Origin: an uncultured Verrucomicrobiae bacterium
Lineage (GTDB): Bacteria; Chlamydiota; Chlamydiia; Chlamydiales; Rhabdochlamydiaceae
Direction: 5' to 3'
NCBI GenBank assembly: GCA_963718565.1
Contig: OY970364.1
Location: forward strand, 768,001 to 832,000
Length of the DNA: 64,000 nt
Below are positions 52,439 to 54,320 of the stretch, in pieces (position 1 is the first letter of the stretch; each line of letters begins with the position of its first letter). The notes under the pieces are model-generated. The model saw nothing but the letters and a program-made list of their open reading frames with translations. It searched no databases and had not been told where the DNA came from. The translations under genes were made by a program, and so were the position numbers.

Positions 52439-52861
52439 ATGAACAAGTTTTTAAGCATTCAGGAAGCAGCAAAATGTTTGGGAGTTTCTCCACAAACACT
52501 CCGCCGATGGGAAAGACACAAGAAAATCGTTCCCTGTCATCGCATACAGGGCAGCCAACGCCGCTATAGTCTCACTCAGTTACAGCCATTTAATTGCGGA
52601 GATAAAACCTCTGATCGTCTAACTGTTGCCTACGCAAGAGTTTCGAGTCATGATCAAAAAGAAGATTTACAACGACAAGTCCATATGTTAGAAATTTACT
52701 GCTTTGCAAAAGGATGGGTGTTTTCGGTAACCAAAGACCTCGGTTCCGGGATGAACTATAATAAACGTGGGCTAAAACAACTGCTTGAGCAAAATGGTTC
52801 AAGAAGCCATAAGAACAAACAGCTTTTGGCCAACCTTCAAAATGCGGTCGCCAATGTCTAA
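52439..52861 (+). pseudogene. tnpA: IS607 serine recombinase TnpA with internal deletion
   Basis: MerR-type HTH, YARVSS, DLGSG; LLEQ joins directly to GSRSHKN and the DRLxR segment is absent. Confidence 0.88.
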
Positions 52862-54320
52862 AGAGAATCTGGTTCTTAAGCTGAGAATTGAAGCAGACCC
52901 TCAAACAATTTCTGAGCTCGATGGGCAATCGCGGATCTGTAATTGGCTTTATAATCATCTGCTAGAAAAAAGCCTGGAACTCAAGCGGGAATTTATCCAT
53001 TCCGGCAACCCGGAGGCATCAAAGACCCTCTATACAGAAAGAGGACTCAGAAATGAACTTCCAAAACTCAAGGAAGAGCACCCCTTTCTAAAAGTCGTCC
53101 ACTCTTCTCCATTAAAAAATACCGCTTTGAGACTTAGTGAAGCAATCCGGGTTCATCAAAAATCAAAAAAAGGAAAACGGAAAGGCAAACAGATGGGTTG
53201 GCCCAAATTTCGGGCCTGGAAACGGGACTGGTTTTCTCTTTTTTACGATGAACCAGAAAAAGGTTTCAAGATTCACGGCAAAGCCTTGTTCCTCTCCCTT
53301 GGAATGGGCCAGGACCGCAAGCGCCGCTTCCTCACTCTCGAATTACCCGAAGCACATCTCCTCAAAGACAAAACCCCACGCAACTTGCGCATTATCTCCG
53401 AACTGGGAACCTACTATGCCATTTTTACCATTCAGAAAGAACTCCCCATCCGAAAACCCATTTCTAAAATCCTCGCACTCGATCCCAATCACAAAAATCT
53501 CGCCTATGGTGTCGACACAAGTGGAACAGCCATTGAGATTGCATCTCCTTACTGGCTCAAAACTTACGATAAACGCCTGGACGAACTAAAAAGTAAAAGA
53601 GACCGCTGTGATAAAAAATCTAAAAAATTCCATGTTCTGGATGAAAAAAGCAATCCCACAAGAAAAGAATTCCATCTTCCTTCCAGGCAATGGAGAAAAT
53701 ACGATCATGCCCTAAAAAGCGCACTGCGTAAACGCCGAGAACAGACCAAGACGTTTATGTTTACAAGCGCACATCGCCTTTTCCGAAATTACGACTGCAT
53801 TGGAATCGGAGACTATACACCAAATGGCGAAGGCATTACTAAACCAATGCGGCGAGCGATGAATAACCGATCCTTGATTGGACGTTGGAAAAACACCCTC
53901 TCCTGGGTAGCTCGAAAATCGGGAAAAACCTTTATTGAATTCGACGAGAAAGGGACAACCCGGACCTGTAGCCACTGCCTGCGGATTGAAGAGCGGGGAA
54001 TCCCTGTCTCATTGAGACAATGGCAATGTCCACAGTGCAAGACCGTTCACATTCGCGACGAGAATGCCGCAATTAATGGCTTGAGAAAGATCTTGCGAGA
54101 TCTTTCAGCAAAAAATGAAGGAGGATATCCTTCAATAGTGTCTGGCTCAGACCTCGCTTTTATCCAAAAGCGATGGGCCTGGTGTGTTTTGCCTAATGGT
54201 GTACATGTGACACCGTGGGGGCAAGACAGCAAAGCAATTTGCAGCACCAGGAAATTAAACCGAGGGCATGATAGCCCTCGATCAAAAGTTGATAATTTGG
54301 TTATATATGATCAGGTTTGA
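52854..54320 (+). CDS. tnpB: RNA-guided endonuclease TnpB with rearranged RuvC
   Basis: WLYNHLL, GWPKFR, LALDPN, IGIGDY, DEKGTTRTCSHC, CPQC, RDENAAIN. Confidence 0.93.
   Translation: MSKENLVLKLRIEADPQTISELDGQSRICNWLYNHLLEKSLELKREFIHSGNPEASKTLYTERGLRNELPKLKEEHPFLKVVHSSPLKNTALRLSEAIRVHQKSKKGKRKGKQMGWPKFRAWKRDWFSLFYDEPEKGFKIHGKALFLSLGMGQDRKRRFLTLELPEAHLLKDKTPRNLRIISELGTYYAIFTIQKELPIRKPISKILALDPNHKNLAYGVDTSGTAIEIASPYWLKTYDKRLDELKSKRDRCDKKSKKFHVLDEKSNPTRKEFHLPSRQWRKYDHALKSALRKRREQTKTFMFTSAHRLFRNYDCIGIGDYTPNGEGITKPMRRAMNNRSLIGRWKNTLSWVARKSGKTFIEFDEKGTTRTCSHCLRIEERGIPVSLRQWQCPQCKTVHIRDENAAINGLRKILRDLSAKNEGGYPSIVSGSDLAFIQKRWAWCVLPNGVHVTPWGQDSKAICSTRKLNRGHDSPRSKVDNLVIYDQV

Follow-up and report, generated by a model that had tools for sequence, protein, structure and literature searches.

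Does an insertion sequence (IS) of a probably intracellular bacterium carry a close bacterial relative of the Fanzors, or a bacterial TnpB of another lineage with the same active-site geometry? The question is raised by a 488-aa TnpB encoded at 52854..54320 (plus strand) of the window, by which we mean the whole stretch of DNA that was analyzed (64,000 nucleotides, positions 768,001 to 832,000 of contig OY970364.1, assembly GCA_963718565.1). An initial annotation had read this gene as an intact, pro-Fanzor-like RNA-guided nuclease and as a possible transfer route into eukaryotes. Our analysis leads to another answer: the gene probably belongs to an insertion sequence of the IS607 family that has moved recently in an environmental bacterium resembling chlamydiae. 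The element carries a TnpB of the rearranged type together with its own omega-RNA, and this TnpB falls in a clade of bacterial D-x-N-H proteins, apart from the pro-Fanzor/Fanzor lineage.

The rearranged active site of the TnpB

Translation of 52854..54320 gives a stop-free open reading frame (ORF) of 488 aa, the start of which overlaps the stop of the preceding tnpA by 8 nt; homologues, too, begin MSKENLVLKL. The protein scores 137.4 bits against the NCBIfam model guided_TnpB (NF040570, cut-off 100) and matches Cas12f1-like_TNB (PF07282) at 5.8e-15 in a Pfam scan, OrfB_IS605 remaining below threshold; a split RuvC and a zinc finger between RuvC-II and RuvC-III complete the features of a TnpB. 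The RuvC-I aspartate D210 (codon 53481..53483) lies in LALDPNH and the RuvC-III aspartate D402 (54057..54059) in RDENAA, and the canonical RuvC-II glutamate position is taken by G319 (53808..53810) in IGIGDY. A glutamate, E365 (53946..53948), is found instead within FDEKGTTRTCSHC in the form E-x6-CxxC, six residues N-terminal of the first CxxC of a C4 zinc finger (C372, C375, C392 and C395; 53967..54038), whose second pair is CPQC at 392 and which was assigned from its motif and from an alignment of 56 homologues. All these features are on the plus strand.

Across the 56 homologues, which share 25-87% identity with the query, no substitution is seen at D210, G319, E365, C372, C375, C392 or R401, and conservation reaches at least 90% at N212 and D402. 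The four features that had first drawn attention to the protein (D-P, glycine at the canonical glutamate position, glutamate before the zinc finger, RDENAA) are all present, and a non-acidic canonical site combined with a conserved glutamate six residues before CxxC is the arrangement of a TnpB with rearranged RuvC-II. HMMER alignments place G319 opposite the canonical RuvC-II glutamate of ISDra2 TnpB (IIGTEHL) and opposite the glycine of ICIGKL in ApmFz2 (9b0l). Counted by hand on the printed alignments, D210 corresponds to the aspartate of GIDPG in ApmFz2 (D324 in the numbering of PMC11832414), E365 to E467 and D402 to D501. These three residues form the catalytic triad of ApmFz2, in which the glutamate is described as shifted by 50 residues (PMC11832414), and cleavage is lost in the E467A mutant (PMC10530073). 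On this alignment, E365 would be the alternative RuvC-II catalytic glutamate, standing in the place of the Fanzor2 catalytic E467, and the earlier description of an intact 488-aa, IS607-associated TnpB with a relocated glutamate holds for the protein itself.

An AlphaFold2 model of the TnpB was obtained with a mean predicted local distance difference test score (pLDDT) of 86.3 and a predicted template modelling (TM) score of 0.81, residues 469-488 having a pLDDT below 50. As modelled, the fold is of the WED/REC/RuvC/zinc-finger kind and resembles that of ISDra2 TnpB, which was also the top Foldseek match (8h1j; TM-score on target 0.82, E 4.3e-18); ApmFz2 appeared at rank 16 with a TM-score of 0.52-0.54.

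Relatives of the TnpB and the Fanzor lineage

A HMMER scan of 1.84 billion representatives returned 1905 proteins with E-values up to 1e-3, and 116 of them had E-values up to 1e-30. Among the best 150 were 65 full-length proteins (at least 350 aa), and nearly all of these read D-[P/Q/L/F]-N-H, G-[D/N]-Y and E-x2-[T/S]-T. The family profile gave 121 bits to ISDra2 TnpB over its full length, compared with 98 bits to ApmFz2 over the RuvC half only and 15 bits to SpuFz1. The two D-P-G relatives P0136 and P0141, searched with phmmer against the PDB, came no nearer to ApmFz2 than the query did.

Trees were built from the scan representatives, named relatives, giant-virus proteins drawn from 44 loci found by a degenerate DNA motif scan of viral contigs, canonical-Glu plasmid TnpBs (seven, later nine) and an IS607 TnpB of Nostoc PCC 7120, obtained as the best plasmid match of a giant-virus Fanzor2-like query. 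Left out were the fragmentary loci L020, L025 and L036, representatives shorter than 380 aa, the broken-motif proteins P0138, P0158, P0194, P0211 and P0216, eleven near-duplicate or irregular rows and, from the second tree, locus L062. Branch support is given as the Shimodaira-Hasegawa-like approximate likelihood ratio test (SH-aLRT). In the LG+G4 tree of 91 rows, the D-x-N-H clade containing the window protein comprised 65 rows (SH-aLRT 99) and the giant-virus clade 15 (99); in the LG+G4 tree of 93 rows the same clades comprised 65 rows (100) and, with the Nostoc protein, 16 (99); and in an LG+C20 posterior mean site frequency (PMSF) tree of 42 rows they comprised 20 (99) and, again including Nostoc, 13 (100). 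All three trees therefore separate the protein from the giant-virus Fanzor-like proteins, and in the two that include the Nostoc protein it is this one, and not the window TnpB, that groups with them. Among the rows sampled for the PMSF tree, the Fanzor/pro-Fanzor clade was sister to a group made up of the D-x-N-H clade and two other rows (SH-aLRT 94). The window protein itself falls within a chlamydial subclade, its nearest neighbor being an 87%-identical protein of a 2.2-Mb Chlamydiae chromosome, and no viral or eukaryotic sequence was found inside the D-x-N-H clade in the samples examined. Judged by motifs and tree position, the TnpB is a member of a large clade of bacterial proteins, mostly linked to IS607, that have D-x-N-H, G-[DN]-Y and the alternative glutamate. 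Trees, profile and fold results together point to an ordinary compact bacterial enzyme outside the pro-Fanzor/Fanzor lineage, though one with Fanzor active-site geometry.

The published Fanzor fingerprint consists of D-P-G and a glutamate six residues before the zinc finger, is given for less than 1% of TnpB homologues, and is shared by pro-Fanzors, which are described as cyanobacterial IS607 TnpBs (PMC10711439). The window TnpB matches a relaxed D-P-x pattern with the alternative glutamate; with Asn212 where the fingerprint has glycine, neither of the published regular expressions recognizes it. A relocated glutamate is moreover described as widespread: it characterizes TnpB2, including an active IS605-linked archaeal enzyme (PMC10530073), and several RIIr clades, the largest with glutamate replaced by glycine (PMC10691335). 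The arrangement that had been taken to mark Fanzors and their bacterial forerunners is therefore shared with TnpB2/RIIr proteins, some of them IS605-associated, and the motif here is in any case D-P-N. The gene is neither eukaryotic nor viral, and the protein lacks an N-terminal extension or nuclear localization signal (NLS): its alignment with ISDra2 TnpB starts at about residue 10.

Comparison with individual systems gives the same picture. With ApmFz2 (PDB 9B0L), the window TnpB shares, besides the triad and the glycine, an E-x2-TT-[KR]-TCS-x-C lead-in to the zinc finger, an IS607-type element and a long omega-RNA (247 nt as reported for ApmFz2); it differs in having D-P-N where ApmFz2 has D-P-G, in lacking the N-terminal extension with NLS, the RuvC-R segment and the thumb, in aligning mainly over the RuvC half and in its separate clade. 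The TnpB of Nostoc PCC 7120 plasmid pCC7120alpha (L111 1621-2796) is likewise bacterial, lies beside a serine-recombinase tnpA and has a glutamate six residues before CxxC, but it reads D-P-G, carries proline at the canonical glutamate position and groups with the giant-virus proteins; from its motifs, and not from the list in the paper, we infer that it is one of the published cyanobacterial pro-Fanzors. ISDra2 TnpB (PDB 8H1J/8EXA; IS200/IS605), which is the best structural match and the best full-length profile match among natural proteins and agrees in domain order and size class, differs in its D-Phi-G motif, its canonical RuvC-II glutamate, its Y1 transposase and its insertion beside TTGAT. 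TnpB2/RIIr proteins resemble the window TnpB in the glycine at the canonical position and in the alternative glutamate (PMC10691335, PMC10530073); RIIr-5 is described as combining Glu-to-Gly with a compensating glutamate (PMC10691335), and both Y1 and serine-recombinase associations occur in clades of this type (PMC10691335, PMC10530073). This comparison was made by description.

In four giant-virus loci from IMG/VR (L053, L058, L090 and L095), Fanzor2-like ORFs with EYLTTKTCS read D-L-G at RuvC-I. If their alignment is right, D-P-G would not be universal among viral Fanzor2-like proteins.

The IS607 element, its copies and its predicted omega-RNA

An alignment of eight full-length loci delimits the whole IS607-family element as 1955 bp at 52384..54338 (plus strand), with left end GGGGCTTGTAACAG and right end TTTTGAAGAGCGG; the borders at 52384 and 54338 are sharp, and the flanks beyond them are unrelated. 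The genome, a single contig of 2,284,058 bp, contains 18 matches to the TnpB, eight of which are full-length at 99-100% identity, and the catalytic D/G/E/D is kept in all eight. Seven of these copies measure 1955 bp, with 2-13 differences between any two of them. Besides the copy at 52384..54338, the window contains a second complete one at 59247..61201 (plus strand; deleted tnpA 59302-59724, tnpB 59717-61183). The eighth full-length copy (genome 188172-192629) is interrupted at element position 1924, 31 bp before the right end, by a 1116-bp insertion. Its 360-aa product has a DDE-like motif at the C-terminus and may, by its resemblance, be an IS630-type DDE transposase.

Of 13 left junctions, 12 have GG as the last flanking bases ahead of the interior GGC, and all 12 right junctions have GG after AAGAGC, in agreement with the crossover at GG at both ends described for IS607 (PMC10711439). 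The GG at 52384..52385 is accordingly read as the target/crossover dinucleotide of the window copy, its partner being the GG at 54337-54338. The base preceding GG (position -3) is variable among the 13 left flanks, and no transposon-adjacent motif (TAM) can be read from them. A search of 18 same-genus genomes and of the element's own genome, with one whole locus as query, found no orthologous empty site with joined flanks and returned only the element and unrelated repeats.

The tnpA that precedes tnpB is a remnant. At 52439..52861 (plus strand) it encodes 140 aa, comprising a MerR-type helix-turn-helix and the first third of the serine-recombinase domain with the serine nucleophile motif YARVSSHDQ. 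It matches MerR at 1.9e-11 and Resolvase over positions 2-58 of 145 only, and reaches 109.5 bits against the NCBIfam IS607 transposase model (cut-off 110), covering 2-114 of 187, compared with 217 bits for an intact 206-aa TnpA of the same genome. Alignment with the intact 206-aa copies shows a clean in-frame deletion of 66 aa, residues 119-184, by which GRLVLTHKDRLLRFG and the next helix are lost. The intactness claimed at the outset is therefore true of tnpB and not of the tnpA of the same copy, a deletion that had been missed.

The deleted form of tnpA occurs at 10 genomic places and the intact 206-aa form at two. Every tnpB-bearing copy in the genome has the 66-aa deletion, and both intact genes lie in copies that have lost tnpB. 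One of them (genome 1528900-1531700) is an 893-bp mini-element with both ends, from which element positions 490-1749, nearly all of tnpB, are gone; the other (genome 46500-50000) retains the left end and tnpA but breaks off at element position 1000, about nucleotide 530 of tnpB, and lacks the right end. In relatives, the 206-aa TnpA overlaps the tnpB start with its 3' end, and the same-genus relatives that have the element carry an undeleted tnpA adjoining tnpB. Transposase and nuclease are thus found on complementary defective elements in this genome, of which those with the nuclease have multiplied. This division, with the deletion in all tnpB-bearing copies and intact tnpA only in tnpB-less ones, is new in the present analysis. 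Since intact tnpA is confined to copies without tnpB, it suggests that the tnpA-deleted, tnpB-bearing elements are mobilized in trans by TnpA from the two tnpB-less copies.

Past the RuvC-III codons, 17 related loci, which include Anaerolineae relatives at 47-48% protein identity, can be aligned at the DNA level as far as AGAGCGG and diverge immediately thereafter. The conserved region contains a predicted omega-RNA, or right-end element RNA (reRNA), with a scaffold of about 250 nt at 54089..54338 (plus strand), which overlaps the last ~77 tnpB codons; its 3' limit is the right end of the element, and its 5' limit is approximate. RNAalifold predicted 44 pairs on this alignment, 25 of them with compensatory changes. 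In a hand-drawn structure of 67 pairs in 12 helices, 92.7% of the cells were paired compared with 41-48% for slid partners, a figure inflated because the structure was derived from those sequences; the sounder measure is the number of pairs with changes on both sides, which was 36 compared with 9-16 when slid. None of 500 shuffles reached any of the five measures. Conservation and covariation thus both indicate a structured 3' omega-RNA ending at the transposon end, and deletion derivatives in the genome repeatedly retain the last 206-218 bp of the element. No Rfam family matched window positions 52300-54500, even with E-values up to 1 allowed.

GCUC at 54145..54148 (plus strand) could pair with GAGC at 54333-54336, in a pseudoknot or another long-range contact; these four pairs are invariant in 17 sequences and so carry no information on covariation either way. 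The flank at 54339..54358 (plus strand), from which the copies diverge, would be the guide, its position following from TnpB/IS607 architecture and its length of ~20 nt being set by analogy. A described parallel for this part of the element is ISXfa1 of Xylella fastidiosa, with GG crossover at both ends, an reRNA that continues beyond the right end and, close to the 3' end of this RNA, a pseudoknot that is required (PMC10711439), features to which the GG junctions and the GCUC/GAGC candidate correspond. The reRNA of ISXfa1 is shorter (~150 nt); the two elements were compared by description.

A 128-aa ORF without Pfam matches (52021-52407) crosses the left junction into the element; in the absence of the element its frame would run ~14 codons further, so that the insertion has replaced its C-terminus. 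The region around the element (50889-57965) looks like a decayed integrated island, with a 225-aa ORF that has no Pfam match but may resemble an integrase N-terminus, a RhuM-family gene (373.8 bits) and two fragments that overlap each other, one of which includes the last part of DUF927. Window positions 45000-64000 contain no tRNA gene. The right end of the second copy abuts the 3' end of an 895-aa minus-strand ORF (61164-63851). When the whole L001 locus was used as query, 27 matches were obtained in genome G003 and 15 in G005, mostly to a ~175-bp repeat beside that element copy (L001:80-252) which recurs often in same-genus genomes and may be a miniature mobile element.

Host, alternative readings and significance

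The genome is bacterial (two 16S genes on a single 2.28-Mb contig), and the host is probably a chlamydia, as had been proposed. Record titles of related loci in reference genomes name chlamydial taxa in 15 of 37 cases and in 9 of the 16 loci at 65% identity or more; the other titles include, as labelled, Verrucomicrobiae, Acidobacteriota, Oligoflexia, Anaerolineae, Bacillaceae and Haloplasmataceae. The genome also encodes four near-full-length TLC nucleotide transporters (genome 1313062-1314528, 1636855-1638318, 1002895-1004370 and 667516-668916), compared with none in 14 control genomes, as expected of an energy-parasitic intracellular bacterium. The element is distributed patchily: of 41 genomes, its own among them, 14 contain a match with an E-value up to 1e-3, and identities of at least 69% are reached in only 4 of the 40 relatives. 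Several loci at 59-80% identity (L011-L013, L019-L021 and L026) are titled Oligoflexia, Verrucomicrobiae, Acidobacteriota or Peregrinibacteria, which could be due to mislabelled bins or to real spread. Judging by titles and the beginnings of abstracts, none of the papers found on IS607 in chlamydiae deals with such an element, and apart from surveys no literature on the subject came up.

Under the preferred reading, the element would work as follows. TnpB would bind the omega-RNA, whose 3' extension would read into the flank as guide, and would cut DNA matching that flank beside a G-rich TAM including the GG core, using D210, E365 and D402; such cleavage may help the element to persist after excision, and TnpA from the two tnpB-less copies would move the tnpA-deleted elements in trans. 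A TAM of GGG is described both for ApmFz2 (PMC11832414) and for ISXfa1 (PMC10711439). Rearranged enzymes are reported to lack collateral cleavage of single-stranded DNA.

Several points weigh against this account. If the TAM were only GG, the occupied right junction, where CGG is followed by the guide match, would also be a target, and its escape from cutting would be unexplained. Mobilization in trans is proposed on the basis of gene content, and the 67-pair RNA was drawn from the alignment that also served for its counts. Two metatranscriptomes contain 5-12% of the sampled words of the element, but their contigs (7 and 2) come mostly from relatives at 90-95% identity and cannot show transcription, ends or strand; one contig of 171 nt, at 99% identity, spans 54015-54185. 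The trees came from short searches with SH-aLRT as the sole support, used a viral set chosen by motif pattern, sampled the other alternative-Glu clades thinly, and contained one cyanobacterial TnpB, itself called pro-Fanzor-like from its motifs.

A rival account is the pro-Fanzor interpretation, according to which the TnpB lies within, or is the immediate sister of, the lineage from which Fanzor2 arose, and amoeba-dwelling chlamydiae were the route into eukaryotes or giant viruses. It can draw on the ApmFz2-like glutamate and glycine, the TT[KR]TCS lead-in, the proline after the RuvC-I aspartate, the IS607 association, the sister relation in the PMSF tree and a host that is probably an intracellular bacterium; the published regular expressions, moreover, require glycine after D-x and would miss a D-x-N-H clade. 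We nevertheless consider it very unlikely, given D-P-N in place of D-P-G, a profile and a fold nearer to ISDra2 TnpB than to ApmFz2, a D-x-N-H clade free of viral and eukaryotic members in the samples examined, and chlamydial sequences that lie deep in that clade together with Anaerolineae, Bacillaceae, Haloplasmataceae and Cupriavidus. Neither the description of the protein as a pro-Fanzor-like nuclease nor the suggested transfer route is sustained, and no sign of transfer to eukaryotes was seen in this analysis. A related idea, speculative and in our view improbable, is that the D-x-N-H alternative-Glu IS607 clade, abundant in environmental chlamydiae, is an overlooked bacterial sister of the Fanzor/pro-Fanzor clade, missed by Gly-requiring patterns, with cohabitation of amoebae with giant viruses marking the crossing point; this genome would moreover present a two-part IS607 system in which nuclease-plus-guide elements without a working transposase outnumber, and depend on, transposase-only ones.

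Two further interpretations concern activity. That the Glu-to-Gly change has inactivated the TnpB, leaving either a gene in decay or a protein that serves as an RNA-guided regulator or DNA binder, is suggested by the loss of the canonical catalytic residue and by the existence of inactivated, exapted TnpBs (PMC10691335). It is very unlikely for a protein in which D210 and D402 are retained and E365 is invariant in homologues down to 25% identity and aligns with a residue needed for cleavage in ApmFz2, whose element is multi-copy and mobile-looking, and which has an active rearranged counterpart in archaeal TvTnpB (PMC10530073). The copies might also be fossils of a single past burst by a then-autonomous element that no longer moves, the tnpA deletion having spread by gene conversion. 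In favor of this, no direct sign of current movement was seen, one of the two intact-tnpA copies has no right end, and several decayed fragments are present in the genome. We regard such a history as possible but unlikely, because the seven intact copies, so little diverged, share the same deletion at different sites, for which spread after the deletion is the simplest reading, and because the 893-bp copy combines an intact tnpA with both ends.

We therefore return to a recently mobile IS607 element of a chlamydia-like host. From its sequence, the TnpB/omega-RNA element is real, well preserved and probably active; its kind is already known, and this member is new. The right end, the GG target and the covarying RNA are clear enough for the direct design of a cleavage test, and as a tool candidate the protein is of ordinary size, and its TAM is probably short and G-rich. 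The split of tnpA from tnpB offers a natural test case for the contribution of TnpB where transposase is supplied in trans. For the family, the relocated glutamate alone is no marker of Fanzor ancestry, and D-P-N-H belongs to a separate large bacterial clade that D-x-G searches skip; for the host, the locus provides an IS607 TnpB with clear limits and apparent activity, together with its omega-RNA, in a phylum that is described as TnpB-poor (PMC10691335).

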